The notes: generated by a model from the sequence alone, not told the origin. Counted from the first letter of the stretch, positions 1 through 21,848 are shown. The stretch: 64,000 nucleotides of DNA from Lytechinus pictus (GCF_037042905.1 NC_087250.1:7008001-7072000), one strand, 5' to 3'. Program-made: numbers and translations.

Positions 1-147
1 AAATGGTGCTATTACAAAAGACCTTGCATGGATTTGATGACAAGGTAATTCCTAATAAGTCTTTCGCATTGCTGTTCCCGATGGCACAAGACGAGGCGTC
101 TGGACAAAAGCTGCAGATGAAACCTACTCTCAACGGAAAAGTGCTTT

Positions 148-410
148 CTACAAAAGACCTTGCCTGGATTTGGTGACAAGGTAATTCCTAATGAAGTCCT
201 TGACGTTGCTCCACGTCCGATGTCCCAGGACAGGCTGCCGCGCCAGAAGCTGTTGAATGGGACCCTTGCCAGGGAGTTTGTTCTGCAGGATCTCATGTTG
301 GAACATCTCAAAGACTGCCGCCTTCTCGTCGGGTGTCCAGGGGCGCTTCTGAGGCTTCTTGCGAGGGCTGTCAGATGACGAGGAGGACTTCGCCCGACTC
401 TTCTTTGAAC
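148..410 (-). CDS. Crypton-like gene, last exon (Myb/SANT-like KRPW...RTW domain, stop TAG)
   Basis: Acceptor ttccaaccag|GT at 411/410; frame of ORF 148..498. Confidence 0.85.
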
Positions 411-3400
411 CTGGTTGGAAAAAGAATGAAACGGATGTTAAAGTTTTGATCATCGACTCAAATTTACCTCTTGGCAGAGTGCTTGAATTCCATCCCACAA
501 TGCATTGCCTTTAAGAACTATGAAGGTAAAGTCCCCAGTTTCTGTGATACTGAACACAGAAAAATCCCACTGAATTTCTAAGAACATGGAATTAACACAA
601 TTTCAAGGAAAATGCCTTCTATCCGGCCAAAATAGTTAAATTTGGAAATTCACATTTAAAAAAGGTTGCAGTTTTTATTTGCATACTGTAATATGTAAAA
701 TTATCTAAACCTCCAATTTCTATATTTGTAACAGCTTTATCATTATTTGTATTTGTCACTTAAGAAAAAAAATTATGTACAGGAAAACTGGGGGCTTTCC
801 TACCTACCAACCCTGACTGCCGAGAAAATTACTAAGCAATCCCCAGATACAGACGCATTCTTACATTTCATTCAATACAACATTAAAAATATAACAAAAA
901 TAGGGAAACATGGGTTAAAATTGCAATTTTCTTTTCCCTGAAATAGGAATGATCCAATTGGAAAACTTCGCAGACATGGGCTATAGTATGGTAAAGTCCC
1001 CAAAGTCTGTTTAGTGCCCCTAGTCTGCGTATGCGCCATTCTTATAAAAGACACACAACAACTAAACTCGACACCTGCAACACATAGACAGATAATCAAT
1101 AAAAAAATCTGACTCAAAATGGTGCGGAAAAAAAAAATCGAATTTGTGACGACCTCAAAATGCAGCCTTTTCTCGTCAAAATCTCAGACTTTGGAGTAAA
1201 GCGAATGGGTGCGCAGACATGGGGCACGGTTTTTTTTCTTCAATTTGAAGATGACTGGCCGAGGCTTTTTTACAAGAAAATATTATGCCTTTCAAATTAT
1301 CATGAGATGTTTGGCACACTTACTCATAAGATTATAAAGAACATATCGAGTGATTTTTTTTGTGTAATACAAATACTCGTGTTTCATCTGAATCTAAATT
1401 CTTAGGTGTGCAGACAGGCCCCCCCCCCCCCCCCCACCATCCCCTTCATACATAAAGTCAGCTACTCTCCGCTGGCTACCGCTGTAATCTCTGAACATAA
1501 AAGATTTTCAGTTTGTTAAACGTCTGTACCGTATCAATAGTTCAAATTACTCTTGTCAGTCTACAATACACTAAATAACTGGCTCTAGAGTACTTGAATA
1601 ACTGTGCAACTTAGCATAATAATACTAATAACAATATAAATAGACATTTATATAGCACCATCTATCTAGAAATATTCTATTCAGTAGAGAACTGTGGTCA
1701 GTCTCCAAATAGTGAGAATATGTTTGGTCACATGATGCTACAGGAAAACATTTTTTTTTTTTCCCCCAAATAATAATAATAATAATTAGACTTATATCGT
1801 GCCAAATCCACTCTGTAGAGAGCTCAAGGCTCTTTTTAGGTAATTATAATAAAGGAAATTAAGAAGAATTGAAGAGAAATGTGTTAAGGTATTGTTTGAA
1901 AGTTTCTGAGGTCAAGCACTGTTTAATGTTTCCAGGGAGGCTATTCCATAACTTGTAGGATGAGTGAACAAATGATCTTTTACCCAGGTTTTGGAAACTT
2001 TGGGGGTAACGAGAGAATTGGAAGAGGAACGTAAGGATCTTGAAGGGGTATAACTTTTGATCAGTGAAATGAGGTACACTGGGAGAAGATGGGAATGATC
2101 TACTATAATTGGAAAACTTTGCAGATATGGGCTAGCCAGAGTCACCTCCTCTGGCTAGCAAGAAGCGGATACAGACCTGCCAACCTCTGGGAATGAAAAA
2201 CTGTATTCTGTGATAAAAAACCCTGTATTTTTCCCCAAAAAAGTTTATTTCATAATAAAATGCGTGGCGCACTCGCTCATGCAAGCTAAAATGCGCACTG
2301 CTCTTGCGAATGAAAAAAAACCAACATTGAAACATGTATGTATCTCACCCTGGCTTTAGCGAAACGATTGAAAAAAAAAACAAGCTACTTGAAATTACAT
2401 TGATCTAATTACCATATTTGTGTAAGTTTTATGAAATAGAGACATATAGAGATGATTTTCCTCAATAAATTACGATTTTGTAAAAAAATATTTAAAAATA
2501 TATATATATTTTTACAAAAACATATTTTTTAAAAGAGAAAACGTACTGACGAATTTTGGTTGCAAAAACGTACTGGTTGGCAGGTCTGCCGATAGACTCA
2601 CCTTTACTCTGTTTGGTGGAGTTAGATGAAGCTGAGGATGATTTATGCTTCTTCTTATGAGATTTCTTCTGTGACGACGACGATCGTCTCCTACTGCTGC
2701 TGCTGCTGCTCTGGACTGGTGAGATTCCAACCTGTGTCTCCAGGATCCCATCCTCCATGAAGTTATACTCAACTGTGATCTCTGGACATAAAAATACAAT
2801 CAATAATGAAATCAACTAGATGAACACATTCATATAAAACTGTATTCTCTGGAGAAAAAAATCAATTATGAAAATGACTTCAACCGGATGCACACATTGA
2901 CATATACATGTGTACTAAACTGTATTTTCTGGAAATAAAAAAAAATCATGAAATGAAATCAACCAGATCTGTGATCTCTGAACATAGAAAACAATCAATT
3001 ATAAAAATGACTTCAACCAGATGAATGTATTTACATATTTTTTACTTAATTGTATTCTCTGGAGATGAACACAATCTAGATATGAAATCAACCAGATGAA
3101 AACATTCACATATTTCTGCTTAACTGTATTCCCTGGAAATAATAACCAATCACTAAATCACTAATGAAATCAAATCAATCAGATCAGTACATTAAAATAT
3201 ATTATGCTTCACAGTAATATCTAGAAATGGGTAAATGAAACCTTTTCATAACATCAGGGTCTCAACAGAAATCTCTGGAAATAAAAAAAAAAGGAATATG
3301 AAATGAAATGAACCAGATGAATGCATTCACAAGTGTCTTATACTCCACTCTAAAGTTGTTCATATCGTCAGGACCATGGAAGAAAAAACAAATCGATTAT

Positions 3401-6400
3401 TATTAAAATCATATGAACCAGATGATTAGTAACAAGTCCCTCAAGGCCTGGCTTTGCCTAAAAAAAAATAATATGACCTTTGACTAGTCTAAGGTAGCTC
3501 TTATAGAAAAAGCAGGGGCGAGACTAGGAGATATTGCAGAAATAATAAGATAATCTATTTTTCATGTCAAATGATGATAATGATGATCCACGGCATTTAT
3601 ATTCCGCCATATTTCTGTTATAAATATTCATAGGCGCAAATCATTTCAATAATCTTGTAATCCTCATGTCCAAACTCTGATAGTCTAGCCACATCCTTGA
3701 TTTTGTGGGCTTGTGCACAACACTTTATCTCATGCTCTACAGCAATCTCTGGAAAAAAAAAAATGTTGTAACATCTAAACCATGTAAAATGGGGGGATGA
3801 ATCATTTTGCGGGTACTTATACCCACATAAAAAAAAATTTCCAATTACTTTTGAGAGAGATTTTTACACATGATCGTACAGGTGCATCATTTCTCTTGAA
3901 ATCCATTGACCTACAAAACACAAAAACTTCAAAAAGTGGGGCACACTTTTCCTCACTGTAGTGCATTCCGCATACAACGTTGATGTCACGTCATATACAT
4001 TGACAAATAATAAATCTTGAATCTTTTCACAGTGAATCAATATTTTGGGGGTGGAATAATTGGCACACCCTTATTGCACTGGCAAATCAGAAACATCTTG
4101 TTTAGACTGCATTATACAGCAGTTTGATAGAGTGTATCTGCGGTCTTACCCTCATCTCTGAATAGGGGGATGTCATCTAGTGACTGGGCAACGAGTCTAG
4201 TCCGGTCTCCATTCTCTATTGATATCAGCACCTTGCAAAGTTTGATCACCTGTACCACGAAACAAAAAGAAAAAATGTAAAGCGGAGATAAGAAAAGAAG
4301 ATACGGAGCAGAGACGACGTAAAGGAAAATTACAAATAGGAGGAAGTAAACAAAGAGATAAGGAAGGGGAGATGGTACTGTATATTCAGAGGAGCCAGAA
4401 AATAAAACGGGGGAAAAAGAGCATGAAGAGAGAGAGACAGAGGGTGACAATAAGAGACGGAACAACAAAGATGTGATTAGAAAGAGTAAATGAGAAGAAA
4501 AACTAGCACATCACTGATGTGGAGCTCATCCGGCATCTCGCAAAGAAATTTAACACAATTTTTAATTTCAGCCCAGTTGACACTGTAGTGAATTATATCG
4601 TTGACATAAATTAAGGAAACAGAATAGAAATTGATGAATGACAGAGAAGAAGCATTTTTGTGATTTAAGAATAAATTTTGTATAGACAAGCATAAATAAT
4701 GTTCTAGTCATTTCTAAATTCTGTGTAGAACCTTGGTGGACCTCATGTACATGTAGCTCTCAGATGGAACAAAAAAAATCAAAATCTGTCAAAAAATAAA
4801 TTAGAAGCATTTTAAAAAAAATACTAGAGATGAAGACGGGGGAAGATGGCAAGGAGTTCAGGAGGGAGAGAGAGAGGACAGAGGGTGACAATAAGAAGAG
4901 ATGGAATAACAAGCATGTGATTAGAAAAGTAAAGAAGAAAAGACAAGATGAGAAAGAGGAGCATTTAGTTGTAACCCTAGATCAGAATGACTTGTAATAA
5001 AATTAAAAACTTTATCTAATACCGTGTGTTTACACGCTGCTTCAGAATTGAGAGCCGATGCAAAATCAGCCTTTTTTATGCATGTAAATGCGATCAACTT
5101 GCATCGGCTCTCGGTGCAGACACGGCAATTTTGCACCACCAAAACAGTTAGATCAGAACCGCGAGCCGTTGCAGACAGTAATTTTTCTATGTGTAAACAC
5201 GAAGCTGAGTCTGCACCGGCAATAGCTGATTGCTCACCTCTTCGCTTATTATGACGTCAATGTGAATGGCGTAAAATATGCGCAGATAGAATCCACTGAT
5301 TTGTGTTTTTGCCCCATGAGCAGATTCTACCCTGCGAGCTGGGACAGCGTGTAAAATGTTGTTTTTTCCAAAACACAGAATATCATCTCTAGTATTTCTT
5401 ACCTGCTTCTTGTCTTCTTTCTCACTGACCTTTACCAAGAGACCTCAGTAAAGGCCATGATAAGTGCATTTTTTAAATTTTAAAAACCATTTATACGCAA
5501 AACATGTGGATTACTGTAGTGTAAAGAACACCCATCAATTTTAGATCAACGCTCTGTAACATAAAGCTTGCAATCAATCGCTGAATGCTATAAATGACCA
5601 ATCAAGATCATCAATGTAAGCACATTTTCTTTTGAACACTGACCAGGATCCAATCAGAATGGATCTTTCATAATTTGCAATCCATTGCAATTCTTACATT
5701 ACAGGATCTAGATTGGTGACACTGGGGGTGAGAACTCACCTGCAGCATAGCATCGGGACCAATCATAAGCATAGCATGCTAATGACCCAACGTTCTCGCT
5801 ACCACGCGTCACGGTTGGCGGGCGCCGCCAAGCCTGAAAATTTTCAGGGCAAATCCGCCAACCCTGAACTTCACCGACAACCGTGGCCGACAACTGTAAA
5901 GCAGGCCTAGATCTACACAAAAACTGAATAATATATAAAAAATAATCTGCTTTTCAGATCCTAAAATAAACTTGTCGATTATTTCGTCCACGATTTCTTC
6001 CCGGGATTTCTTTGACTCACTCACTACTACTAGTGCGCTATATACGATACGACCTCGACTCGAGGCCCAATCTCTTTTGTGGGAAGCGCGAAGATGTTTA
6101 CCTCGCATTTGCGTATCGCATTGCTCACATTATTTACGTCTTTAAAATGGTAGTAAATACGCTCAAAAACAAGTGAGGGGAGAGGGGTATCGTGGGTTAT
6201 TACTGGCTTGGGCAATGTAATTTAGATTATTACGAATTTCAGTTGATATTGTCACTTATTATGTCAAAAATAAAGTGTGTCAAAATTACTATCAAAATTC
6301 GATCGAAATATAGTTTCATCTCGTCCCAGGCCCCAGCCTTTATAGCTACATCTACATGAATTCATTGAATGCATTTCTGATGACACTGCCGTAGAGCGAA

Positions 6401-9400
6401 TTGAGAAAAACTATTCAAAGATCACGTTAATAATGACAAAGCCAATGGAATGGATTGATATAATGTCCAACTCATTTACTTACATCAAAATGATTTATTC
6501 ACATTTAAATTCCGATTTTACTCCATTATTTCCAAAGTCTCTACGTGGATCTTTTGAAACTGTTGATTAATTTCGCGACGGTGTGTCTACCAAGTTCTGT
6601 GCCACTGCACTCGCGCTCGCAACGGTCACATTCATAATACAAATCGCACATGGCATCAAAATCCTTGATCCAGGGATCCGATAGTCTTCCAAAATAAGAT
6701 GGGATCCAAAACTAATTTAATTTGATTTTTTTCATATATTCATTGAATCTGTTATAATTTCATAATTAATAATCTTTATTAATATTATTCACACTTTTTA
6801 TCATATTACGACTCATTTTTTAATGTGAGTTATACATATGTACAGTGTATTTTCATTTCATTGTTCTTTATTACTCTTTGCCTGCCAATTAAAATAATGA
6901 GCGCACCTGTCGCGGGCCTGAGAAATGTTTTTAGTCATCACAGTGAATGCTTTATGAATTTGTTGTACAATTGCTTAACTACGATTTAAAACAAAATATC
7001 ATTTGAAATTAATTTGTGTAAAGGAAAAAAGGAGAATGGGGGGTGGCCGTGGGCAATGTAGATGAAAATGATGGGATGTTTGTGACTTTGTGGGGAGGCG
7101 ATTAAGTTCGTAGCGAATGAAATTAATATTCATTTATGGATGTGTCTACTGTGATTGTGGCTGCATAATCTTTATGGCGATTGAAAAATCCACCTTGGGT
7201 CGGGAGAGGTACGTGATTCAATAGATTTCGATAGAAGTACACATTCAACAAAGTGGAATTGGCAATTCATTCACAGATATTCGTTTCAAGTACGAATTAT
7301 TGAAGTTGATATGTGTGAAAGTTTTTGAGATATCGGATATGTATATCGTTTTTTCACGCCCACAACCACAATGAGTTGCTAGTATAATTTGAATATCGTT
7401 GGATGAATTTTTCAAGTTCACTTATGTCTTTATGTTTCATATCGGAATTGTGCTTTTAATATATAAGTTATATCTTGGCAACGTCGTTAGCCTAATTATA
7501 CTGCGAGTGGATGATATTTATGAAATGAGTTGGAATGTGAACGAGACGCCCCAAAGCCGATGGCACGTGATCTAATTAGTATTCACTTTCTGGGTCGAGC
7601 CAATCATTGTGCTTGAAAACGGGTTTCCCCGAATTCCCGCCCTTGGAATGTGTCCCACGTGTGTGACCTGTTAACCTGTTGTTTGAGTGCGAATCAGCTG
7701 ATTTCTTGACCTCAAAAACTCTTCATGGTGTTTACGCTGCATGGATGGGGGCTATAAAATTAAGAAGATCTTTCTCTTTTATTCATTTTTAATAAACTGT
7801 TCGTGATTTTCAAACTACACCTATAGTGATATTGTGATGCAATTTATTGAATCACGTACCTCGATCATCCCACTCATGGTGCAAGAAAATATTTTTTAAA
7901 TTCACCAAAATATACATGTAAGAAAGATTATTCGGCCGTCATCATCGGTAGAAGTATAGACAAGTCTATAAAAATGTATTCGCTTCGAATATTGACTTCT
8001 TCACCAATCCCACACACAAGATCTCAACATCCCCTTGTCATTGTCCACGCCACGACCCCTCCCCTATCGCTCTCTCCCTTCGACCATCCTACAACCCCAC
8101 CCCTCTTCCTCTCTTTCACACACGCTGTATTTGTAGGCCTACATAATGTATTATGTAAAAATAGAAATCTTATTTCCTGTCAATTAACCTATACTTTCAA
8201 AACATTTTAAATCGCAGTTAAGAAAAACAAATTCGTAATATTAGAGTATAATGAATGACTAAAAATATTTCTCATGCTCGTGATGAGCACAGCACATTCA
8301 TTATTTTATAGGTGAGTAACGAACAATACAAAGGAACACAGCAATAATTGACAGTGATAAAAGAATCTCGATTGGAAATTATTAGTATAAACATCATCAA
8401 CAGAAGTCTTATGAGAGTTATAGTTTCAGTGAGTATCGAATAAACCAAACAAAAAACCAAGCAAATTGTATAAGTTGGGGACCCCGTCTCATGAATACCG
8501 ATGCCCATTATTTGGAAGCCTCGGAAGAAAACCTCGGTCACATTTGCTCTACGGCGAGTCGAAAACAGCCGTTTTATTCATTTGTATTCAAACCACGGTA
8601 ACCACCTATATTCAGCTGGTACAAAAAATGTTAAAACGGCTGTTTTCGACTCGCCGTACGGCCGCCGTAGAACAAATGTGACCGAGGTATAAAGTCGAAA
8701 CAATCTTTGGATTTAGTAAGGGCGTGACGCAGCGCAAGCTCAAAGGGCTTCGCATGCGGTCCGTAGATGCAGTCGGTCATTGACATAAGAAACAACACGC
8801 ATTCACAAAATTAATCGCACTTTCTAAGGATGTAGCGATATCGATCTGAACATTGGAAAGTATGGAGTTAATTTATCGATGTAAATAGTCTATAAACTGT
8901 AAGTATAAAATGAGATTGACTTCAATTTTTAAGTTATCAGTAATTGCCTTTCTGCTTCAATCGCAATTTGCGCAACCGTTACGGCTGTGTGGCCGGAGAG
9001 GCATTAAATAGACATAAAATGTGGTGCATTTAGCAGCAATCTAAGCTCGTCGATATTGATATTTTCGATAGCTACCGCGCTTTGCGAGGGAGGGGGGACA
9101 CCCCCCTCCCGAACCCTCCCCCCGTGCGTGCTTCGCACGCACCGAGGCCGCTGCGCGGCTTGCGTCGCTTCGCGCCGCCAAGCGTCAGAGTGAACCTGGC
9201 GAGAACGTTGTAATGACCAATCAACATCATCGTTGCATGCACATTCTTTTTAAACACTGACCAGGATCCAATCAGAATGGATCTTTCATAATTTACAATC
9301 CATTGCAATTCTTATCTTACAAGGTCTAGATTGGTGACACAGGGGGTGAGAACTCACCTGCAGCATAGCATCGGGACCAACCATAAGCATAGCATGCTAA

Positions 9401-12400
9401 TGACCAATCAACATCATCGTTGCATGCACATTTTTTTTAAACACTGACCAGGATCCAATCAGAATGGATCTTTTATAATTTGCAATCCATTGCAATTCTT
9501 ACATTGGTGACACAGGGGGTGAGAACTCACCTGCAGCATAGCATCAGGACCGTGTATCCTGACGTCATGTCCCGTCAGTCGAGCCACAATGCACAACTCA
9601 TTGTCCTTCAGATTCAAGATCTGACTTAGTGTAGCAATGTGGTTCTTCAGCTGCTTGCACTGAAGGTTCTCCGGACTGCTGGCCCCGCACTCAAAGGCAA
9701 ACCGCTGCAGACACTCCAGACCTCTTACCGTGTTGGACACCCGAGAATCGGGCTGAATCATCGGGAAGAGGTACTCATTGGTATCCGGGATGCCTACATC
9801 GTGGCGCTTCGCGACCAGGATATCGATCCAGAGCTTGATCTCGTCGGTCAGGAGTACAGGTACGACCTTGCCTTTCTTTCCGATGACCTCGATGCGCGTG
9901 AGCTTCTTGCAAAGTTCCTTCTCGAAGAGACTCATGGCGTCGTAGACGACGTGAACGTCCGGGTGAAGCGGTTGGTGCTTGCGCGCATAGTCACTGAGCT
10001 TCATTTTGGCGATGCTTCCAAGCCGCCGTCGGTTAAAGAGTATGACTTGTGTGAGGGCAATCTCGCTGAGATTGAGCCATGCATCATAGATATCTTCATT
10101 GGTGTGAAGCATTCGCATTTGTTCATGAGCTATCCTCTTGAGGTACGATGTCAGGCAAGCTACATCCTGCGCTAGCGATAACCACTTAGGGTTCCCTCGA
10201 CCTTCGTCTAAAATGCTTCCAAAGTGCGGCAAGGTGGTTTCTTCATGGAACTGGAATTCGAGCATGTCATGGAATTCTGAAGCCCGCTTGTAAGCGAGTG
10301 TGTCCCCAAGGGTCGACGCCTTGGCCTGTAAGATGTATGTGCATTTCTTGAGCGAGTACCCAACATTGGTGTTAAGACTCGGCGAGGAGTTGTTGTATCT
10401 CCGATGGTTAAACCCTGCTAAGCGCCTCGCAGCAATCACAACATTTTGAAACTTGGCAGGGTCAATGAAGGTGTGTAACGTCGCTAGAGGATCTCCACTC
10501 ACAAACCTGAGCTCTAACAACAGTCTACCCAACTCACGGAGTCTTAGCTTTATAGAGACCGCCTCCTCGCGATCATGATTCAACTTCAGACACTCTTTCT
10601 GCGCAATCTCCAATATGAGCGGATCGTAACTGATACAGTGCGACACGTCATCCATTTTGTTGATTCCGAGCACGTCCCCGCGTAACTCCTCCAACGTGCA
10701 CTCCCGGTGCGCGACGGAAAGCACGCCCTCATCAGACGAAACTGATCCTTTTTGTTTGGTCTTTTCGCGAAGTCCATTAAGAGGGCACTCGTGCTTCCAG
10801 AGATCCCGCTTGACATAGTATGCATAGCAGTAGGAGCATGGAATGTATTCGCGAGGGTCTGCTCCCAACGTCGGTCGTTTCTTCACGATCAGACTTCCCT
10901 TGCCTTTCTGTAGGACGTGCATGTTGTGTCTATGATTACCTGCAAATGAAGAGGAAAAAAAAACATAGCTAAAGGATCATCACCTCAAACACATAGGTGT
11001 AACAAAGTCAATTCAAGACTAGACATGATAGATCTGGGGCCCGTTTCATTAAGGACTTGCAACTGTTGTAATGTTGCCACTATGTCAACTACCATGGTAA
11101 CAGGGCTCAGCAGACAATCAGAATCAAGGTTGCCATGGTAGTTGCCATAATGGCAAAGTTACAACAGTTGTAACTCTTTATGAAATGGGTCCCTAAAGTG
11201 GCCTAGTTACAATGGTCACAGTTCGTGAAGGTGCCCTAGCAAAGTGGTCTAAGGCGCCTGACTAGACATTTGCAAGTCCTGGGGGGCGTTTCATGAAAGG
11301 ACTTGTCGGACGTTTTATCCGACAAGTCCCATTTTATCCGACAGTTACCATAGTAACAGTACCTCTCAGCCAATCAACATCAGAGAAAGATGTCAGATCT
11401 GACAACTTGTCGGATGAAAATGTTGATGAAACACTCCCCTGGGCTCGATCCCCGGCCACGGCACCTATGCCCGTGAGCAAGGCATCTAATCAACAATGCT
11501 CTTTTCTCCTAAAATCAAATAAATGGAACTGATACACGCATTCTTGATGATTGCTTTTAAAAAATTCAAAATCAATAACATTACAATGGCCATAAAATAA
11601 ACATTTTGTCTATATTATATTACCCATATCAGACATCTGAGCTGGCCATTTATCAAAACGTGTTGCCCTAGATTTTAAGAATATCGGAAGGAAATCGGAA
11701 TAGGCATATTATTTGTATTTTGCTTGGTACCTACGCGCATACCGACTATTTCCCATCAAACTCACCGAGATTTCTTAACTTTGCCAGCTTGGCATCCTTG
11801 AGAATGGGATCTTTCTCATGCACAAAGTCAATGACTGCCGCCTCTGTGTAGTGGAGTTTGACCAGATGGCGCGGGATCTTGGAGACGGATTTCTCACAGT
11901 ACAGGCAGAAATATTTCTTGTCAAACTTTCTCCTCCCGTCCTCGTAGTTGTTCGTTGACATGACGATAACGTTCTGAAGATCTGGGATCGGACATGGGGG
12001 CAAAGGAAGAAAGAAGAAATAAAAAACTTGACATTGACGTTTCGGAGCAAGTAATAAATAAATCCTCAAAAATCATTCCTTTAAGTTATCATTCAGTAAC
12101 GAGACACCTCCATATTTCACTACTTGGTCATCTAAAAAAAAAAAATCTATATATTGATGTTGATCCTAAATATCATGCAATGTTTTGCAGTGTAACCAGA
12201 GTCAATTATGCAATCAATCCAAAACAAAGTTCTACTATGATTGCTATGCTTTTTGTCACAGGTACCAAGTTATACTCACTGTTTTTAGATTTAGGAATGA
12301 TGACGGCTTCATGATCGTCGTCCAGAGAATTCTCATCTACCGCCTTCACCGTATTGTTAGCCTGTGCCTAAAAACAAATATTTTACAGATAAATAACAAT

Positions 12401-15400
12401 TGGAGTACTGTAATGATCTTAAAGGTGACAGAAAGTAGTTGCAGCAAACAATAATTTCATGAGAATGTCTTTAAAATCAAGGTTTAAATGCTACCATATT
12501 ATCATAGATCTAGTGTATTTTGAGTGTATTAATATTGTTTGGAAAAATACCCGACATATTAAGGAATTCCGTGCTTATTTTGCTCATTTCTCAGCAATTA
12601 CACATTTTTTTACAGAGCCATTTGGCACCTACTTTTCATTCATACATACAAACACTTGGGTGGTCACTTTATTGGATTCTGTTTCGAACTCATTTTGAGA
12701 TCATTACCACAACTGGTATTTATCTTTAAACAGAATCCAATAAAAAAACAACCTAAGTATTTGTAATTAGAAATGGAAATACGTGCCAAATCACTCTCAT
12801 AAAAAAAGAGAATTTTATTTCTAAAACGTTCCACGTTGCTCTTTGATGTAATACCTTGATCAGATAAAATGACTTGGGCATAACAAACTTCTGTTTCTTT
12901 AATGAAATGCTCAAATTTAGACAATTTACCAAGCGAAGATGTTTTCACTAGTTGCTTTTCACATTTTCTAACCAATCCAGCAAGAACTTATTTTTTCACT
13001 AGACTCAGAAGAGGTATATAACCGCAACTATGGAAAGCCAGCAATGTCAACATTTAAATGCATGTTTGTTCAAAAATGTTTTCCAGACAGGATATCGTCG
13101 TCTTGACAATTCAGCGTGCTTCTCCTCATTTACATAAAGGACATTGTGCAAATTTCCTGAAGAAAAAATAATGACATTGTTGGATTTCCATACAGTTAAG
13201 GTTGATCGGATCAATCGTACATGTAGCTCTTTGTAAGACGAGGCCCAGATCTTCTCTGTTCATTATCAAGATTAACAATCCCTGCACCCCTCCTCACCTG
13301 TAGATAAGCAGTCTCGTATACCAGAGGATCGATCGTAACGGTCGTGGTCCCTCCTATGTTGTTCCTGGCCGTGTTGACCCACTGGACATCGGCCATTACC
13401 TGGGCAGTTGCTTGCTTGACCGGTTGCTGCTGCTGATACCCGGTGGTCACTGCTTGGTAGAAGACCTGCGGCTGGACCTGGGCTTGGGTCTGGATTTGGA
13501 CCTACATGTGATTTTGATGGTCAATTAAGAATTAGGATAATATTATTTAACTAGTTATCTATAACAACAGGGGTGTGAGTGGTCACAAATATAAAGATCT
13601 GAAAAAAGCTGAAGAGTATTGAGGAAGTTTGAAATAGATAGAGCTCCCATCCTTTTTGTACCGAGAAGAGCCAAAAATAGGCTGAAATTAAACTGAAAAT
13701 AAAAATAAAATAATCTGAAATCAGCTAAAAATCTGAACTCTCACACCCCTGAACAAATATTAAATTCTCAGATGAATATGCTTATAACCAATCTAATTCA
13801 TTTTATATCATTACAAGGGATTTGTCTATAATTTGCACATTCCCTAGTAGAATGCAAACCAGAAAGAGAAGAAAAGAAAAGATTGAGAAGTAGGCAAGAT
13901 GAAAGGCTCGAGTAGAAGGCTGGCTTGAGTTGGAGAGTGGAGGTGTAGAGCACGGGTGGATGAGAAGACTTGGCATTTCTGGCAGGTTGACTGTCCGTCT
14001 TCAGAAGATTGATACATAGTATGTCAGGCAAAGTAAGTCAAGTTTGAGCATGCTCAATGTCTAAAATTTCTTCAGCCACTGGCTTTATATGTGCCACCCA
14101 TTGCCCCAACTATTATGATGTAAGTTCGAGTTTTGGTAAAGATATTCGATTCTGAAAGGAAATAGTTGATGCAATCCTGAAATGTTCATAAGCCAGAATG
14201 CTTATTTAGAAGAACAAGGTTTGATTAAAATCACTTAGGCTTGCTTAGAATTACATTCATTTCATGACCACATACTTTTACTGATGTAGCTAACACAAGA
14301 ATCAACAGGTGGGACCACACTATAAACGGACAGGCATTTTTCCATAGTTTTTCTGATCTTCATTTGAGCACTACTCAGTAATTATACATTTTCCCAAATT
14401 ATTGTTCGGCAGATATCATTTATGATCCTGTGAAAGTTTTGTTCATTTCTGTGAACATGTAATTTTCTGTCGTTCCCCATACATGTACCAGAGTTGATCT
14501 TTGACCTCTCACCTGTTGTATCGGAGTTTGCTGTTGAAGAGTTCCATTATTATCCCAGACGCCGCCTTCAGATTCTTCTTTGATAATGATAGCATCTACT
14601 AGTCCCAAGCAAGGGACATTGGCACCTGTACTTGCAGCTTCTGGGAGTGACTTTGCCTCGGCTTGCACAGCGGACTGCTCCATGTCCTGTTTTGATTGGA
14701 TACAACGAAATGAAGGAGAATACAATCATGTATCCAATCAAAAATGCAATCATACATGTACATGCCATCAAATACTAGTTGACAGCCAAAGACAGGAAAA
14801 ACCTGCTCCTGTACTCAAAGCATTAAGGGTGACTTTGCCTTGGGTGTGCACAGCAAACTGCTGTGTCCTGGTAGGGGACATTTCATGCAATCATACATGA
14901 AATCAAACACGTAATCAAACATGCCATCAAATACAAGTTCACAGTCTAAGACATGGAATACTTCTTTATCCCTGTACTTCCAGGCCAGCTTCTGAAAGTG
15001 ACTTTGACTCGGCTGGCACAGTGGACTGCTCCATGTCCTGTGTAAAAGAAACATACAATCATAAATGCAATTAAAAAAAATAAAAGTTCACAGTCCAAGA
15101 CAGGAAACACTTGCTCTTGTATTTGCAGCTTGTGGACGTTTTTTGCCTTGACAGCAAACCGCTCTGTGACAAAAACAATTGTGAACATTTAAATGTAATC
15201 ATTAAATGCAATCAAAGAAACATGCAATTATGATTTGATGTTCCTCAACAAAAAATACTTAATTTCATATAAAATAAGGTGAAAACCTTTTAGGCAATCA
15301 AATATAAGCAATGGACCTAGAAATCTAAGAGGGCAAAATTCAAATCAAGCAATTCAATCCAGTTTCCATTAAGCTTAAGACCAAGCTGGAAAATAACAAA

Positions 15401-18400
15401 CATTTGGAAATTTACTGTACTTGTAAATCATGCAGCTTAGGAACTGCAAATTAATCCTCCTGGTATGATAGATAAAAATTTATTTATGTATCAACAATAA
15501 AACACGCAATCATCATACCCAAAGGTCAGAAACACTTGTCACTGCATAATTTGCATCATAACAACAAACTGCTTTATACCGCCATCTATTACACTGTAGA
15601 TCTATAAAGAAATTATATCTCATTAATTAATGCATAATACTTAATAGATCATTCATTCGATCAATCAAAGATGCCATCCACAGACAATTCAATCCAAAAT
15701 GCATTCATTCATTCATTCAGGCAATCATTTAAGCAAGCATGCAATTGCAAATTTGCAATCAAACTGAATTAAGTAAATTCAGGCAAGGAACACTGATATC
15801 TTAGGGAGTGATACATACAGTACGTGCAATCAAAATTAAGTTCAAGTTCAAGTTCAATTCATTTCCAAATACAATCAACAGCACTGGCGGATCCAGGGGG
15901 GGCACAGCCAGCCCGTGCCCCCCTCCTTTTTGAGAAACAAAATTTAAATTTGTAATGTAAAATGCCGTTGAAACAGAAGTGTGCCCCCCCCCCCTTTGAA
16001 AATGAAGACTTTCTTTTTTTTCTTTTTTTTTTGCTTGTTAAATTTTTCCTCGGAAATATGTACCCCCCCCCCCTTTTGAAAAATCCTGGATCCGCCCCTG
16101 GAACAGAGCAATGCAATCAAACATACAATTAAACAAACGTATGCAATCAAAAGTTAATTCATTTTAAAGTCCCAGGCACAAAACACTTGCCCCTGTACTT
16201 GCAGCTTTAGGAAGTTGCTTAGTCTTGGTTTGTACAGCAGACTGCTCCATGTCCTAACAAAGATAGTGAAGGCCATAAATGTGCAAGTTTTTGGAAACCT
16301 TGACATTTCTACATATGTAGTTATCCAAGAGTACCGTAAGTAACGGTGTATTAACCGCACCTTTTTCTCGGCGGGACAGAATCAAAAGTCGGGGGTGCGG
16401 TTTATACACGGTGACAGGTCTGAGCCAAGCCAATCTCAGCCCGATACCACTACCAGTTTTCAACTCGCGTCGGGTGGCCGAGCGTAGCCGCTTGGGGCAA
16501 TCCCGTTTAGAGGGGTATGAGCCGCGGGTATAAAAGGGAAGCAACTATGACTACCGGTATCTGCCGTAAATGTCCCTCAAAGTTATATCACGGTAACAAA
16601 CGCACCTACCTTCATGAAACTGACTTTTTTTAATGGTGTGACTCTGTCTTTGTTGTCATTTTTTAGTCATCGCGGCAAAGTTCAGACGCCAATCGATCGC
16701 ACAGCGCGGTGCAGCTAGCCGAATAAGACATGCATGTGTAATGTTTATCGCAACGTCAACGTAAGCTGGCGCTTTACCTTTCCGTGGAAGTTATTTTGTT
16801 TGACAAATTATTGGTATTATTTGACAATTAATTTCTTTCATTTGCCTTTCCTTCATTTCTCTCTATCATCCATCATCTCAAAATCAATCTTCAATCCCCA
16901 TCTTCACTCCTTCCGACTTTTTATTTTTAATTATTATTCACTTTATTCCCGCCCAGAGCTCCCATTGAAAATACGGTATACCGGTACTAGCATTTTTTTT
17001 CCTATTTTGCTGTCTGTAAGATACCGCCACACACGTACTGAGAACTACCAGTAGTGGTTCAAAGCAGACAAGAAAAACACCTGAACAAAATCGCAAATTT
17101 CTCGTATCTTGAACCTTCCCGTATTCCCTTGTCTAAAATTCATGTCAAGACATTGAATGCTAGACAGAATTCTGAAAGCAAAAGTGGGGCTGTGATGCAG
17201 GAAATATGATATGAACGATCTTCTCGTATGGGTGAGCCCCCATGTTGATGCTGGTATCGGTACTTGCAATGAACACCAGTACCATATGTGTGTGTGTGAG
17301 GTGACTCGCAGTGTGGAAGTGGCCAATAATATCGGCAACTTGCAGATAAGTGACGAAGCGCTGATTTCCCATCATTTTTTACCAGTAATTCTTCGATATT
17401 TTTTGGTTCTTGACTCTTTTTTTTTTTTTTTTTTTTTCCATCCGAAAATGGGGGGTGCGGTTAATACACCGTTACTTACGGTATGTATACTGCACTACCA
17501 GTCATAAGTCTTTAAATCACTATTGCACTATGAAAGCAGAAAACAACAGGTTCAGTGAAGATGAGTGAACCGATTCTATGTGGTTTATTTCCAATTCGTC
17601 TCATGCCAATTCTTCCCATTGCCAACTCGTATACATGTACTATCATTTGGTCCGCTCACCACATGGTCTACTTTCATTTAGTCTAATGCCATTCCGTCTA
17701 ATAACCAGTTGGTCCAAGAGCCATTTACTCCATATACCATTTGGTCTAATTTGACTAAGTGTTAAATTGTGCAAAATGAATGAAAATGAAATGGATATTA
17801 GACCAACTGGTTATGAGACGAAATGGTCATAGACGAAATGGTGATTAGACAAAGTGATGATTGGACCAACTAGTTGGTACATGTAGACGAAATGCTGATG
17901 GACGGAATGGCATTAAAATGAAAGTAGACAATGAGGTGATTGGACGAGCTGGCAGTAGACGAATTGGCAATTTACCTTCTACAGTATGTAATGGCAAGAT
18001 TAAAAGAATATCTTTGCCTCTGCAATTGTTGTGTAAGGAGTCATTGCACTGTATTCCCATTGATTTTTTGTTGCTGTGGACAGTAAAAACTATATGAATT
18101 CATTAGTTCTACACTGCACTCACTTTACAAGGCATGGGTTCAAACTTCAAAACCCACTCTTCTTCGTTGATTCTTTATCTGTTAAAACATGTATGAATTC
18201 ATAACAGTATCATACATTCTGTTGGAAATCAGGCCAATTATTAAAGGGGAATGAAACCTTTGGAACAAGTAGGCTTGTGTCAAAACAGAAAAATAAAAGA
18301 ATAAGAACAAAGAAAGTTTGAGAAAAATCGGACAAATAATGAGAAAGTTATGAGCATTTGAATATTGCAATCGCTATAAATGCCCAGATCCTCCTATTGG

Positions 18401-21400
18401 CAATGCGACAAGGATGTATGATGTCACATGTGAACAACTTTCCCTTTGATGGACTATAAAATACCCCCAAAATTTCTCTTTTTGCTTTTTCTTATGGTGA
18501 AACAAACTCTTTATCCATGATGTATTCTTTAAAAATCTGTATTGTATTACATGCCCTCCTGTTGAAAGAACACATGGATCTATCCCTTCTTTCTGGACCC
18601 TGAAACTTCATTTTCAGTTGATGTCACTTTAGATCAACTAACATAAATGTCTACAAAATATTAAAAACTCGGGCAAAACAAATATTATCATTCCATTAAT
18701 AGACCTAAACTTACAATTATTTTGTGCTGATGGATAAGACAAGGATAAAGGATCTCTGAATCATTGATATTGAACTATTTATTCCTTTGGGGTCCTTTTC
18801 TCTATTTGAAAAAAAAAATTGTATCACTCAATAAACAATCAAGACAGAATCACAATACAATGAGGCTATAAATGAATTTTTGCTTTACTCATTAAAATGC
18901 ATACATTACAAATCCATCTTAAAGGTGATACCATTTCTTTTTAAGTCGAGAAAAGGCCTCCAAAGGTATAAATCAGGTCAATATTGAGTGGTACAAAACA
19001 AAAGTTTTGGTTGATTTTGGGAATGACGATAATTGATTTGCCCGAATTTCACACTGTGTTCCGACATGCAGAAATTCCAAACATTAATTTTAGTCGATCT
19101 AGTGTGACATCAACTGAAAACAATGTTTCAGGGTCAAGAAAGAAGGGAATATTCTTCATTTTCTTGACAGTTTCCACGGCCAAGTAAATAAAACTATTTC
19201 AAAGAAATGTGGAAAACTGATGGCCATTTCACAGATGAAAAAATGTGAAATTTCATCAACTGTGGGGTATTTTTTTTCTATTATTAAATAATCCCCTCAA
19301 ACAGTTGTCAAAATAGGAAACCTTTATTCTTTTATTAATGGTCATTTGAACAGCGTTTTCACATTTTGACTCAGCCCTAGTCTTGTTTTAAAAATTCTCA
19401 ACATTATCTTATTTACAATCAGACCTCAGCAGTCAACAGGCATTCGGGATAGCAGCTTGGAATCGAAACAAAATCAAAATTTGACAAAATGCAAATTCCC
19501 TTCAGCTTCAAAATCAAATAGCCTACAGACGCACTTGCTCACTGCAACCATCCTGCCTGTGGGGAATCTACAGGTAGGACAATGGTACTGTATGCCAATG
19601 CAGTACACAGCACACGCTTTTAAAAAAATCATTAAAATATTACTTTTATGACTTTATGACAAAGAAATACTACTTTCTATACAGTTGCAATTTATTTTTC
19701 ATTGGCATTTTGGGAATAATTTTTGTATTCACCAGAACGCTCAAAAACTTAAAATTTGGGCATATTTTTGCATACGCCCTCTTTAAGTGGAAAGTAAAAT
19801 GGCAAAAAAAAATTCATTTTTCAATCTCTATTTTTAATTAAGAAAAAAATAATTCAAAGAATCTAATTCATTTAGGAGCAAAGTTATATAATGAATAGCT
19901 GTAATACTAATAATATGGAAACTGAGTGTCAAAAAATCAAGCATTTGTCCCAAAGTCCCCAAAGAAAAAGATAAAATTAGTCAAACATTGCCAACCTTAT
20001 TTTGCCACACATGGAGTAGTAACAGAGAACAAGGTTATCATATAGATCTAACCTTCATGACCTTGTTCATTGAATGAGTGTATAGACGTAGACTTCTAAA
20101 TTGATTTTACCAAAAAAAAAATGCTCATCCCTTATCCCTTTCACTTCCTGTCCTCATCGTGAAATAAGTCGCCTCTCTCTTCTCGCATGTGCCATCAGCC
20201 TCGCATTGTGTAGATCTACAAGAGTAAGGCGTAAGTCCACAACAAAGTCTAATACCCCTTTCATAAACCCATCCTCCAATTATCCGCCTAAGAGTAATGC
20301 GGATAATTCAATAAAAATTGCATTCACAAACTCCGAAAATAATCCGCACTATTTTTTACGAGCGCCCGACCTGAAAAAGGCGGATAATTGTCACCTGTAC
20401 ACATCCCCCTCCCATGGGGTTGTGTTGGAAAAGGGTGACCTTGTGACCGCACCATGGCGATTATCCGCATTACTTTGGAAATGCGTTTATTAGGGTGTCT
20501 GGAGAAAAAAAATATTTTTCTTATTTCAAGGAAATATCGCATTTTCTTTGTGAATTTGAAGAGAAAAAACCTTCAGACTGACAGAAATATAATATTTTTT
20601 GAAAAAATCCAATTATTGGCTGCAAAAAAGAAGAATGAAATTAGGTCAATTTTCAGCATTTTCCTGCCATAGACTGTGTAGTTAAGAAATGGACACACAC
20701 AAATCCTAATTTTTAGCTTCCGAGAGCTGTCATAAATTTATTATTAATGCCAAAAACTTGTCCATAAAGTGTCTAATAGGAATTTTTATGCTCTTTCCGA
20801 TGGTATGATTTTTATAAAGATTTGGAAACCAGATCACAATGAAAAATTGCGACAAAAGTTAAAAAATTTGTGCAAAACAGAAATTTCATTTTCCCATAGA
20901 AAACGTATTGGGGAAATAACAATCTCAACACACACACAAATAAGGGTTTGCAATTTATCTCTAAATCCTTATTTCAAATAATCCTATAAACTTGTCCTTA
21001 CTGTCAAAAGAAGCCCCTTAATTTTCTCTTTCCATACATGCCAAACAAAAGTTAATAATCCATTCAGATCACATTTTTTAGCAGCCTGAATTTCCCGAAA
21101 AAAGTGTGCCATATTTTCCCCAAAATCAGCCTGTTTTATGCTGACACTTTTCAGTGTGGCTTCAGACACCCTACGTTTATAAAGTCAAAATCTGGTCCCG
21201 ATGCCGCTATTATGCGGATAATTGCAGCATCGAAATAATGCGGATAACTCTGGTCCCGCTCCGATTTTACGACCAAATTATGCGGATATTATCCGCATAA
21301 TGGGGTCTATGAAAGGGGTATAATTTACAGGCCTAACGACATTAGACCCAAAGTTACCGAACGTTACAAATGTGTCACCAGCTAGCAGTAGCAGCACTGC

Positions 21401-21848
21401 AAATTAAAATTAAAAACGGCAGTGAACACGGTGAAAAATGGACTGGCGACTTATTTCATGATAATGCCCACTTCCTTTACTAAGGACAAGGAAAGTGGGA
21501 CATTAATTAAATATAAGTGTGTATTTTAAATTCCAAATGGCAAGGTCTTGATTTAGGTCAATCTTGTTCAGTTTCTCATTCAGTCCCACGCACTCAAATT
21601 CAAGCGTCACCTTCACAATGAAAGCAATTTGCCCTTGCACCTGCACAATGCGCGCACGTATTGACCGACGCATGCATGCTGAACTGTCAGATGTCCACAC
21701 TCACATCACGATCTTAATGCGATCCAACACCACAAAATATTCAGATCACCTCATTTAAAAATCTTGTAATGTTAGTTGAACTGGTAACAGGCAAAATATA
21801 CAAATACTATCAAGATTCAGGAATAAAAATGAGAATATTTACCGTCAT
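148..21848 (-). CDS. Spliced gene, about 879 aa: CryptonV-type tyrosine-recombinase-like protein with C-terminal Myb/SANT-like helical domain, probably domesticated
   Basis: Exons on minus strand: 21848-21843 (MT, least certain), 14686-14513, 13501-13298, 12367-12280, 11981-11766, 10939-9531, 4249-4150, 2781-2602, 410-148. All introns are GT-AG with matching phases; total 2640 nt is open. Motifs: KKYFCLYCEKSVSKIPRHL, KLRNLGNHRHN, PCSYCYAYYVKRDLWKH, LRELGRLL, ILFNRRRLG, RIEVIGKKGKVVPVLLT, HIATLSQILNL, GHDVRIH, KRPWTPDEK...LPGK...RTWSNVKDFIRN. Family call is from motif recall, not a search. Confidence 0.8.
1790..2095 (-). mobile_element. Decayed 3' fragment of an L2/CR1-type LINE
   Basis: Translation PVYLISLIKSYTPSRSLRSS resembles the L2/CR1 ORF2 tail; next to an (AAT)n tract. 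Confidence 0.6.
2172..2588. mobile_element. MITE (hAT-like TIR)
   Basis: 14-bp TIR CAGACCTGCCAACC / GGTTGGCAGGTCTG; no clear TSD. Confidence 0.65.
2602..2781 (-). CDS. Crypton-like gene exon (S/K/R-rich, NLS-like)
   Basis: tgtccag| acceptor, G|GTGAGT donor, phase 1 to 1, frame of ORF 2492..2815. Confidence 0.8.
2774..3430. repeat. Degenerate 65-75 bp tandem repeat derived from the acceptor region of exon 2781-2602
   Basis: Recurring ctgt(g/a)..ctctgga...atgaaatcaaccagatgaa..cattca units. Confidence 0.7.
4150..4249 (-). CDS. Crypton-like gene exon (VIKLCKVLISIENG...SLDDI)
   Basis: gtacag| acceptor, G|GTAAGA donor, phase 0 to 1; continues the family motif after MLQ. Confidence 0.85.
5788..9210. 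mobile_element. 3.4-kb non-autonomous DNA transposon (hAT-like)
   Basis: Perfect 12-bp TIR CAACGTTCTCGC; 8-bp TSD TAATGACC at 5780-5787 and 9211-9218; no transposase ORF. Confidence 0.9.
8531..8688. mobile_element. Small foldback MITE nested in the hAT-like element
   Basis: ACCTCGGTCACATTTG ... CAAATGTGACCGAGGT termini and internal inverted arms. Confidence 0.7.
9211..9551. repeat. 187-bp tandem unit containing the exon donor; a third copy lies at about 5593-5787
   Basis: gagaactcacctgcagcatagcatc occurs at about 5730, 9349 and 9521. Confidence 0.9.
9531..10939 (-). CDS. Crypton-like gene, large exon carrying the tyrosine-recombinase-like core
   Basis: Mostly within ORF 9459..10922; tttgcag| acceptor, CAG|GTGAGT donor. 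Confidence 0.9.
11036..11193. mobile_element. Palindromic MITE (related copies near 48247, 50157, 53337)
   Basis: GGGGCCCGTTTCAT ... ATGAAATGGGTCCC termini. Confidence 0.7.
11230..11535 (+). mobile_element. tRNA-derived SINE interrupted by a MITE (about 11282-11438)
   Basis: A-box-like tagcaaagtggtctaagg and B-box-like gggctcgatccc are split by a GGGGGCGTTTCAT MITE of the same family as 43380-43632. Confidence 0.6.
11766..11981 (-). CDS. Crypton-like gene exon (CxxC...H zinc-finger-like motif)
   Basis: Frame of ORF 11746..12069; cccag| acceptor, G|GTGAGT donor. Confidence 0.85.
12280..12367 (-). CDS. Crypton-like gene exon (AQANNTVKAVDENSLDDDHEAVIIPKSKN)
   Basis: gtttttag| acceptor, A|GTGAGT donor; 88 nt, phase 0 to 1 bridges both neighbours. 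Confidence 0.75.
12422..12726. mobile_element. MITE with TTAA-like flanks (Kolobok-like); relatives at 40920-41266, 48355-48598, 53447-53685
   Basis: ttaaaggt...ctttaa ends and shared internal text across four copies. Confidence 0.6.
13298..13501 (-). CDS. Crypton-like gene exon (Q-rich)
   Basis: atgtag| acceptor, CAG|GTGAGG donor; 204 nt; frame of ORF 13211..13450. Confidence 0.75.
14513..14686 (-). CDS. Crypton-like gene exon (DMEQ...IIIKEE...QQ)
   Basis: aaacag| acceptor, CAG|GTGAGA donor; 174 nt; frame of ORF 14420..14725. Confidence 0.7.
16334..17481. mobile_element. Non-autonomous Tc1/mariner (pogo-like) element, 1148 bp
   Basis: 28-bp TIR CCGTAAGTAACGGTGTATTAACCGCACC, TA on both sides. 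Confidence 0.88.
17583..17973. repeat. Foldback repeat with about 16-bp internal subrepeats; second family member at about 46246-46668
   Basis: ccatttggtc(t/c)aa and ttagaccaa arms in inverted arrangement. Confidence 0.65.
18584..19147. mobile_element. TIR element nested in an older MITE that starts at about 18242
   Basis: CCCTTCTTTCTGGACCCTGAAAC / GTTTCAGGGTCAAGAAAGAAGGG; TSD unclear. Confidence 0.7.
19533..20080 (+). repeat. About 500-bp dispersed repeat, second copy at about 39672-40170, short fragment at about 26715-26750
   Basis: Both copies start acttgctcactgcaaccatcctgcctgtgggga and stay colinear to cattgaatgagtg. Confidence 0.85.
20253..21320. mobile_element. PIF/Harbinger-like MITE with a nested insertion
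   Basis: TIR TACCCCTTTCATA / TATGAAAGGGGTA; TAA TSD. Confidence 0.8.
20491..21173. mobile_element. Nested 683-bp TIR element
   Basis: TIR TAGGGTGTCTG / CAGACACCCTA; 7-bp TSD CGTTTAT at 20484-20490 and 21174-21180. Confidence 0.82.

Follow-up and report, generated by a model that had tools for sequence, protein, structure and literature searches.

A stretch of DNA in the sea urchin Lytechinus pictus raises the question of whether a recombinase gene that has lost its active site is the remnant of a transposon or a gene that the host has taken over from one. The stretch (64,000 nucleotides, GCF_037042905.1 NC_087250.1:7008001-7072000; hereafter the window) had been given a preliminary description, in which positions 148 to 21848 were proposed to hold an intron-rich gene for a catalytically dead tyrosine recombinase of the CryptonV type, recruited by the host from a Crypton lineage separate from CryptonA, the source of the known genes KCTD1, ZMYM2/3/4 and QRICH1. 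Our analysis upholds the core of this proposal: the gene is single copy, spliced and expressed, its orthologues share their lesions and appear constrained, they form a clade nested within a family of element-like proteins, and the protein has no match to the DUF3504 profile PF12012. We think it likely that the locus is a domesticated Crypton-like recombinase gene of echinoids, catalytically dead, whose product would now work as a DNA-binding regulator of transcription or chromatin.

Gene structure and expression

The gene lies on the minus strand, and its nine exons join from a start codon at 21848 to a stop at 148 into an open frame of 879 residues, as the preliminary description had assembled them. 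The exons are as follows, with the evidence for each in brackets (E, expect value; pLDDT, predicted local distance difference test score).

21843..21848, minus strand: coding end of exon 1, ATG ACG (Met-Thr), with a GT donor at 21842-21841 (sequence; fits the MTD of the annotated orthologues; no read confirmation).
14513..14686, minus strand: exon 2, start of the Q-rich disordered N-terminus, with a conserved IKEE motif (joint 13499>14511, translation, pLDDT <50; only orthologues match the region).
13298..13501, minus strand: exon 3, Q-rich (read joints and translation).
12280..12367, minus strand: exon 4, a linker of 88 nucleotides (joints 11981>12280 and 12366>13297).
11766..11981, minus strand: exon 5, the first zinc finger, of the C2H2 type, with C183, C186, H196 and H201 (tblastn against paralogue proteins, E 1.3e-11; beta-beta-alpha unit, pLDDT 86-97).
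9531..10939, minus strand: exon 6 (1409 nucleotides), the second zinc finger (C264, C267, H279, C281), the core-binding domain and most of the dead catalytic-fold domain, ending in GHDVRIHGPDAMLQ.
4150..4249, minus strand: exon 7, the helix after the lost tyrosine segment, VIKLCKVLISIENGD... (tblastn against the paralogue C-terminus, E 2.6e-4; joint 4245>9527, crossed by 69 reads in one raw-read run and 88 in the other).
2602..2781, minus strand: exon 8, a disordered Ser/Lys/Arg-rich stretch that resembles a nuclear-localisation signal (reads, translation, pLDDT <50).
148..410, minus strand: exon 9, which encodes a predicted homeodomain/Myb-like domain of three helices at the C-terminus and closes the frame with TAG at 148-150, from which the 3' untranslated region runs on towards position 1 (reads, translation, model pLDDT 89.3).

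Stranded RNA runs X19 and X20 and contigs from the same organism (X1) and from a close relative (X5) were mapped to positions 1-20000 of the window, and intron boundaries were set on GT/AG dinucleotides after mapping; none of the sequence sets listed as containing the exon is registered as RNA, and the evidence for expression consists of the two raw-read runs, X19 and X20. Seven of the eight introns had RNA support, all of the GT..AG type (411-2601, 2782-4149, 4250-9530, 10940-11765, 11982-12279, 12368-13297 and 13502-14512), with 35-91 reads per joint in each raw-read run and even counts over all seven joints, so that the proposed junctions were confirmed wherever reads crossed them. All joint reads came from pairs with the first mate on the plus strand, and the skipped parts read CT...AC on that strand; the contigs of the relative showed five of the seven joints as well. 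Exon bins were covered approximately 30-130 reads deep (approximately 32 in the bins of exons 2 and 7) and repeat-free intron bins approximately 0-5 reads deep, while several other intron bins carried very deep reads on both strands. The intron without read support is the first one, the mapped reads having covered the window only to position 20000.

Joining the exons from the ATG at 14683 gave an open frame of 876 residues, identical to the annotated 879-residue L. pictus protein P0091 except for the first residues of the latter, MTD. As read from the sequence, the ATG ACG at 21848-21843 fits the Met and Thr of this N-terminus and is followed directly by a GT donor. The largest open frame of the locus (9459-10976, minus strand) carries the recombinase motifs that the preliminary description had quoted. 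The public annotation of the gene is "uncharacterized" only, and literature searches with four gene identifiers found no paper naming it within the open literature, Repbase Reports and subscription journals being outside their coverage.

Active-site lesions

The motifs of the protein read NRRRLGS, CKQLKNHIAT and GHDVRIHGPDAMLQ/VIKLCK. It had been proposed that the first arginine motif (NRRRLGS) and the GH are kept, that LRK has become LKN and that the tyrosine segment is missing, and each of these changes was borne out by a 71-sequence family alignment comprising four orthologues and 67 non-orthologous members. Position 661, the second catalytic Arg in the LRK box, is K in each of the four orthologues, against R in 66/67 of the other members. 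The nucleophile Tyr, present in 66/67 of the others, was lost from 4/4 orthologues together with four neighbouring residues, an in-frame deletion of five alignment columns that lies seven codons before the intron. Three further positions differ in the same manner: 538 is S in the orthologues (E in 67/67 others), 662 is N (K in 66/67) and 693 is G (R in 67/67). R533, R535 and H687, each found in 67/67 of the family, were kept, as was the beta-hairpin lysine K584 (65/67); the catalytic first Arg is probably one of R533 and R535, assigned from the R-x-x-E pattern.

Identical active-site lesions are borne by the orthologues of Lytechinus variegatus and Strongylocentrotus purpuratus and by those of two Diadema species. 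No other Tyr occurs between residues 686 and 737; the next is Y738, which Diadema replaces by Phe and which the model places with low confidence. Judged from these alignments, the protein is very probably unable to form the covalent tyrosine-DNA link. The idea that a leftover tyrosine segment might survive in the window was rejected: tblastn of paralogue proteins at a loose threshold returned three known exon matches only.

Predicted fold and DNA-binding modules

The AlphaFold model, built on a 71-sequence alignment, had a mean pLDDT of 71.7 and was confident over approximately residues 160-735 and 812-879, with residues 1-156 and 738-811 disordered. Comparison of the model with VIA-align matched region 331-743 to XerH (5jk0_D; residues 334-743 aligned, Z 12.4, root-mean-square deviation 4.1 A over 272 residues), followed by Cre (approximately Z 11), an integron integrase (Z 10.8) and the C-terminal domain of XerD (Z 10.6). 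All 50 of the 50 rows listed were tyrosine recombinases, type IB topoisomerases or recombinase-fold phage repressors. On the model, residues 331-743 form the two-domain tyrosine-recombinase fold (core-binding and catalytic domains), and the structural comparison with Cre and XerD that had been suggested for this protein recovers it. The protein thus resembles XerH, XerD, Cre, integron integrase and lambda Int in its two-domain fold (Z 10-12.4 over 250-277 residues) and differs from these active tyrosine recombinases in sequence (8-17% identity) and in the absence of the nucleophile Tyr and the second Arg.

The zinc-finger-like motifs and the Myb-like C-terminus noted in the preliminary description were both recovered. 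The first finger is a classical C-x2-C-x9-H-x4-H unit, modelled as beta-beta-alpha, and the second reads C-x2-C-x11-H-x-C; all eight ligands are kept in this protein, and those of the first finger are present in 61/67 of the other family members. A profile search of PDB sequences returned weak zinc-finger rows (E 0.2-0.7) and one low-complexity match only. Folded alone on a 26-row alignment, the C-terminal domain (75 residues) reached pLDDT 89.3 and matched HOXB13 (Z 8.0, root-mean-square deviation 1.8 A, 60/60 residues) as well as TRF1, TBF1, ARR1, SANT and Zeste. The listed rows were homeodomain-like in 50/50 cases, at Z scores of 5-8 that the tool's own note calls middling, and Foldseek gave E >=0.7. 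An Atlas search pointed to the Rap1 Myb cluster with a score of 0.77, a lead only, and the Pfam Myb, SANT and homeobox families gave no match at E up to 1. By fold only, the domain is a homeodomain/Myb-like three-helix domain. The Q-rich N-terminal exons with their IKEE motif and the Ser/Lys/Arg-rich exon resembling a localisation signal, which had also been described, are present as exons 2-3 and exon 8.

Copy number, orthologues and selection

A six-frame search of the 812-Mb L. pictus assembly with the large exon gave 32 matches, one of which, at 100%, was this locus and the next best of which reached 37%. The assembly therefore holds a single copy and no near-identical dispersed copies: this is a single-copy host gene and not a mobile element. 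The 90%-identity cluster of the protein has named members from L. variegatus, L. pictus and S. purpuratus, together with four further genomic open reading frames that carry the same lesions and motifs and the same read-through past AMLQ. A second cluster contains Diadema setosum (a partial model of 643 residues) and Diadema antillarum (870 residues). The L. variegatus and L. pictus proteins differ by four substitutions and one indel, and identity to the L. pictus protein is 96% in S. purpuratus (gene LOC100892319) and 86% in D. antillarum. In L. variegatus we observed two annotated loci (P0002 and P0090) on one 47.8-Mb contig, one residue apart (Gly/Ala), which may be a recent duplication or an assembly duplicate.

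In the large protein collections searched, orthologues are known from echinoids only. Nothing was found there between the orthologue clusters (Lytechinus/Strongylocentrotus and Diadema) and relatives at <=42% identity, an absence that is limited to those collections and may differ for cidaroids, sea stars and sea cucumbers; the N-terminal 160 residues, used as a query, matched the two orthologue clusters only. Diadema and the camarodont urchins parted in the early Mesozoic, which would make the gene roughly 200 million years old, if not older.

Fifteen coding differences were listed against the contigs of the relative, of which 13 were synonymous (third position), one exchanged the stop codon TAG for TAA and one was Asp to Glu. 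With 587 synonymous and 2041 non-synonymous sites, the ratio of non-synonymous to synonymous change is approximately 0.02, a rough figure. Conservation was unequal along the protein. Relative to L. pictus, the catalytic-fold domain was the best conserved part, with 254/255 identical residues in S. purpuratus and 243/255 in D. antillarum, followed by the C-terminal domain (99% and 97%, in the same order of species), the core-binding domain (99% and 92%), the zinc-finger region (96% and 84%), the Q-rich N-terminus (94% and 71%) and the Ser/Lys/Arg-rich stretch (83% and 71%). These comparisons point to strong purifying selection on the gene, which appears to rank among the more conserved proteins expected between these urchins.

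The parent family of element-like proteins

A search among 50%-identity representatives returned 3958 relatives at E up to 0.001, and those with names came from teleosts, bivalves, gastropods, a nemertean, hemichordates, a sea cucumber and urchins. A SET domain (PF00856) is present in many of the relatives, and in some genomes there are several loci of near-identical score. The full layout is seen in protein P0004 of the sea cucumber Apostichopus japonicus, which starts with a SET domain (E 6.2e-13) and shares its C-terminal domain with the urchin protein; it also matches Phage_integrase weakly (E 5.5e-4, short of the cut-off). That C-terminal domain was found in 114 of 246 family proteins, eight of them orthologues and 106 non-orthologous, and it also occurs as a downstream exon in two paralogues of the L. 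pictus genome. Among the non-orthologous proteins we observed that the domain of P0123 (1334 residues) scored 82.7 bits to the urchin one, against <=59 bits for the others; the recombinase region of this protein is only 36% identical.

One L. pictus paralogue (G000:C21:10268500-10278400, minus strand 2431-7882; hereafter the C21 paralogue) has an unbroken frame of 1069 residues that contains all catalytic motifs and has its start within a SET-like region. After this frame come an acidic exon-like frame and, approximately 2 kb downstream, a separate frame for the C-terminal (Myb-like) domain. The paralogue also contains a 129-bp unit repeated 5.9 times inside its frame, with a 278-bp tandem array (3.6 copies) beyond. 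The host gene has two introns, after LRNLG and after AMLQ, in a region that is an unbroken frame in the C21 paralogue. Since the frame of the paralogue runs unbroken from zinc finger to recombinase, these two introns look gained, while those before the tail exons may have been inherited. A SET remnant was sought in the window and gave a chance-level match only (E 4.5).

Like the parent SET-recombinase family, the protein has the same zinc ligands, FNRRR and GH, at 25-42% identity over the zinc fingers, the recombinase and the C-terminal domain. Unlike the family, in which R661, E538 and the Tyr are present in 66-67/67 members and SET is common, the host gene is without SET, has a new Q-rich N-terminus and carries two introns in a formerly continuous frame.

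The position of the gene in the family was examined by maximum likelihood (quick method, LG+G4) in a tree of 73 sequences, made up of the 71-row alignment A3 and two own-genome paralogues, with none dropped. The four orthologues formed one clade with a Shimodaira-Hasegawa-like approximate likelihood-ratio test (SH-aLRT) support of 100, nested among element-like relatives, and the sister of the clade was a set of A. japonicus proteins (support 91). The stem of the clade measured 0.83 changes per site and its inner paths 0.021 and 0.10, with a median end branch of 0.43 over all 73 rows. A long stem followed by near stasis is, as far as a tree of this kind can suggest, the expected mark of a co-opted gene.

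The parent family, with its SET, recombinase and Myb-like domains, seems poorly described. Searches of the open literature found no description of a Crypton with a SET domain, apart from two reviews that combine the terms (by title); Repbase Reports and subscription journals were outside coverage. The parent family may be the CryptonV of Repbase. The motif strings given for CryptonV in the preliminary description match the consensus of alignment A3. The name itself turned up in just two kinds of source, the classification tables of Repbase and a single citation of a Repbase Report from 2012 that deals with elements of cnidarians. Some CryptonV-type families have been reported to insert into microsatellites (PMC8869645).

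Comparison with Crypton-derived host genes and phage repressors

To our knowledge, Crypton-derived host genes have so far come from one lineage, DUF3504 (ZMYM2/3/4, QRICH1, KCTD1, KIAA1958 and WOC). The urchin gene is an independent second case, which arose from another recombinase family and belongs to another phylum. PF12012, the DUF3504 profile, had no match on the urchin protein at E up to 1; the same profile finds 30 other places in the genome, none of them at this locus. A profile comparison with the DUF3504 elements of this genome gave a probability of 0.1, for a DUF3504 profile made of three sequences.

ZMYM2, ZMYM3, ZMYM4, QRICH1, KCTD1, KIAA1958 and the fly gene WOC are described by Kojima and Jurka (2011, PMC3212892) as Crypton-derived host genes that all carry DUF3504. 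According to the same source, the vertebrate genes lost the same two catalytic residues, and the DUF3504 parts were combined with zinc fingers or Q-rich regions, for which a role in transcription or chromatin was proposed (PMC3212892). The urchin gene is like these genes in that a Crypton tyrosine recombinase was turned into a conserved, expressed host gene with the same two residues lost. It is unlike them in coming from a different recombinase lineage, in being confined to echinoids among the collections searched, and in keeping the architecture of the element bar SET (two zinc fingers and a C-terminal helix-turn-helix). The loss of the same two catalytic residues on two occasions suggests a repeatable route from recombinase to DNA-binding factor.

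A functional precedent comes from bacteriophages. MrpR of phage SPbeta is reported to have a tyrosine-recombinase fold, to have lost recombination and to act as a DNA-binding master repressor (PMC10516654). The structural matches of the urchin model include such recombinase-fold phage repressors (8a0a, 8bj6 and 9rd5, that is MrpR/YopR and phi3T SroF, at Z 8.6, 7.8 and 9.2). As in MrpR/YopR and SroF, the urchin protein would have a recombinase fold without recombination, which in those phage proteins is a sequence-specific DNA-binding regulator. Unlike the urchin protein, they belong to bacterial phages and are without zinc fingers or a helix-turn-helix tail, and no sequence relation to them is shown here, so that the likeness is a functional analogy only.

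Proposed function and alternatives

We propose that the ancestor was a Crypton-like element with a SET domain, two zinc fingers, the recombinase and a C-terminal Myb/homeodomain-like domain. The host copy would have lost the SET part and gained the Q-rich disordered N-terminus, retaining both zinc fingers, the two-domain recombinase clamp and the C-terminal helix-turn-helix domain. Its chemistry would have been lost through the change of the second catalytic Arg to Lys, of the Glu after the first Arg to Ser, and through the deletion of five residues that included the Tyr nucleophile; the protein would no longer cut or rejoin DNA. It may bind DNA in the nucleus through the clamp, the zinc fingers and the helix-turn-helix, four nucleic-acid-binding modules in all, as a regulator of transcription or chromatin, and the Q-rich tail may serve as an interaction or activation region. 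Judged from domain content and precedent, DNA binding without cutting is the most likely mechanism.

Several points weigh against this reading of the gene. A Pfam scan of the exons and of the whole protein gave no family that reached its cut-off. Foldseek placed tyrosine recombinases at the top, albeit weakly (the best was XerD at E 4.7e-3), and the assignment of the fold leans on the AlphaFold model and the second look with VIA-align. The estimate of selection used the 15 best-supported differences, where 726 more exist over all runs and positions, and the ratio was taken from the contigs of the relative. The mobility of the relatives is itself deduced from their numbers, patchy spread and near-identical copies in some genomes, and the C21 paralogue has one full copy and one fragment at 97-98% (contig C10) in the L. 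pictus genome.

It is rather unlikely, in our judgment, that the protein is a tamer of its own relatives, which would bind the ends or recombination sites of intact SET-recombinase elements, or enter mixed assemblies with their recombinases, and so repress or steer their movement rather than act on host genes. The phage protein MrpR is a reported case of a dead recombinase fold acting as repressor of its own mobile element (PMC10516654). The urchin protein keeps all DNA-recognition modules of the parent family, and relatives with intact motifs and long frames share its genome, such as the 1069-residue frame of the C21 paralogue with its 97-98% fragment. However, the recombinase domain is 95-100% conserved over a very deep split, yet the elements are <=37% identical to it and highly diverse. 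Factors in conflict with elements usually evolve fast, so this deep conservation counts against a role in restraining them.

We also doubt, and regard as unlikely, that the dead clamp retains the capacity of the family to pair two DNA sites, so that the protein would be a sequence-specific DNA-bridging or looping factor, or would guide live SET-recombinase enzymes to particular sites as a partner without catalysis of its own. Either role would explain why 95-100% identity over a very deep split extends through the whole catalytic-fold domain instead of being limited to the side that faces DNA.

That the protein is still an enzyme, with another nucleophile or with a catalytic partner in trans, seems very improbable. 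R533/R535, K584 and H687 are retained, and the extreme conservation of the catalytic fold would fit an active pocket. The Tyr segment, however, is deleted in all four orthologues with no substitute at 686-737, Y738 being of low confidence and Phe in Diadema; Lys stands in place of the second Arg and Ser in place of the conserved Glu, and known Crypton-derived host genes are reported to have lost the same residues (PMC3212892).

A decaying or defective element copy, or a transcribed pseudogene, as might be supposed from the descent from an element family, the missing catalytic residues, the repeats around and the long interspersed nuclear element (LINE) nearby, is refuted for practical purposes by an 879-codon frame open over nine exons, orthologues 86-96% identical in three genera, the silence of 14 of the 15 listed differences, the single copy and the even read counts at seven joints. 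The domesticated DNA-binding regulator that we favour would probably be an important nuclear factor, testable in L. pictus and S. purpuratus, laboratory models with routine knock-down, knock-out and binding maps.

Intron content and surroundings of the locus

The introns had been described as full of old transposons, and they do bear repeats, among them a dispersed stretch of approximately 100 bp with 820 first-look candidates in the genome; the deep both-strand reads in several intron bins agree with this. The following feature lies at the start of intron 6.

9211..9551, minus strand: start of intron 6, where the exon-6 donor junction is duplicated locally (copies at 9211-9405 and 5593-5787), beside the dispersed repeat of approximately 100 bp.

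We observed that the last 21 nucleotides of exon 6, the GT donor and the first ~30 nucleotides of the intron have two copies in intron 6 on the minus strand (compare 9398-9551). The copy at 9211-9405 stands in tandem and that at 5593-5787 lies 3.6 kb downstream, so intron 6 contains two decoy donor sites. We considered whether a transposon had supplied the exon-6 donor at the tyrosine position and rejected this. PDAMLQ corresponds in the alignment to PDxTLQ, a motif of the family itself, and dispersed repeat sequence is confined to the ~100 bp alongside; the copies of the donor junction are therefore taken to be local duplications. A single scan of positions 1-23000 for repeats in general, not aimed at termini specific to the family, showed no direct or inverted pair on either side of the gene.

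Two degenerate copies of the start of exon 2 (MEQSAVQAEAK..., 14601-14688) lie upstream in intron 1, at 14952-15039 (61% identical) and 16168-16255 (78% identical). A duplicated stretch of this kind also opens P0094, an older protein model of S. purpuratus, and the duplication may be old.

Beyond the gene, a non-LTR (long terminal repeat) retrotransposon occupies 28231-34311 on the plus strand; its unbroken frame of 2026 residues matches an endonuclease (E 2.2e-15) and a reverse transcriptase (E 6.2e-29), with a weak PHD-like match. The TMEM101 neighbour on which a synteny comparison had been proposed is present in the window as an exon-like frame at 42542-43102 (plus strand), which matches Pfam TMEM101 at E 2e-28 over profile positions 102-250 of 252. 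Further along, at 57018-62452, long His-rich, Ile/Thr-rich and Asp-rich low-complexity frames lie on both strands with a strong negative GC skew, and this is probably a simple-repeat region.

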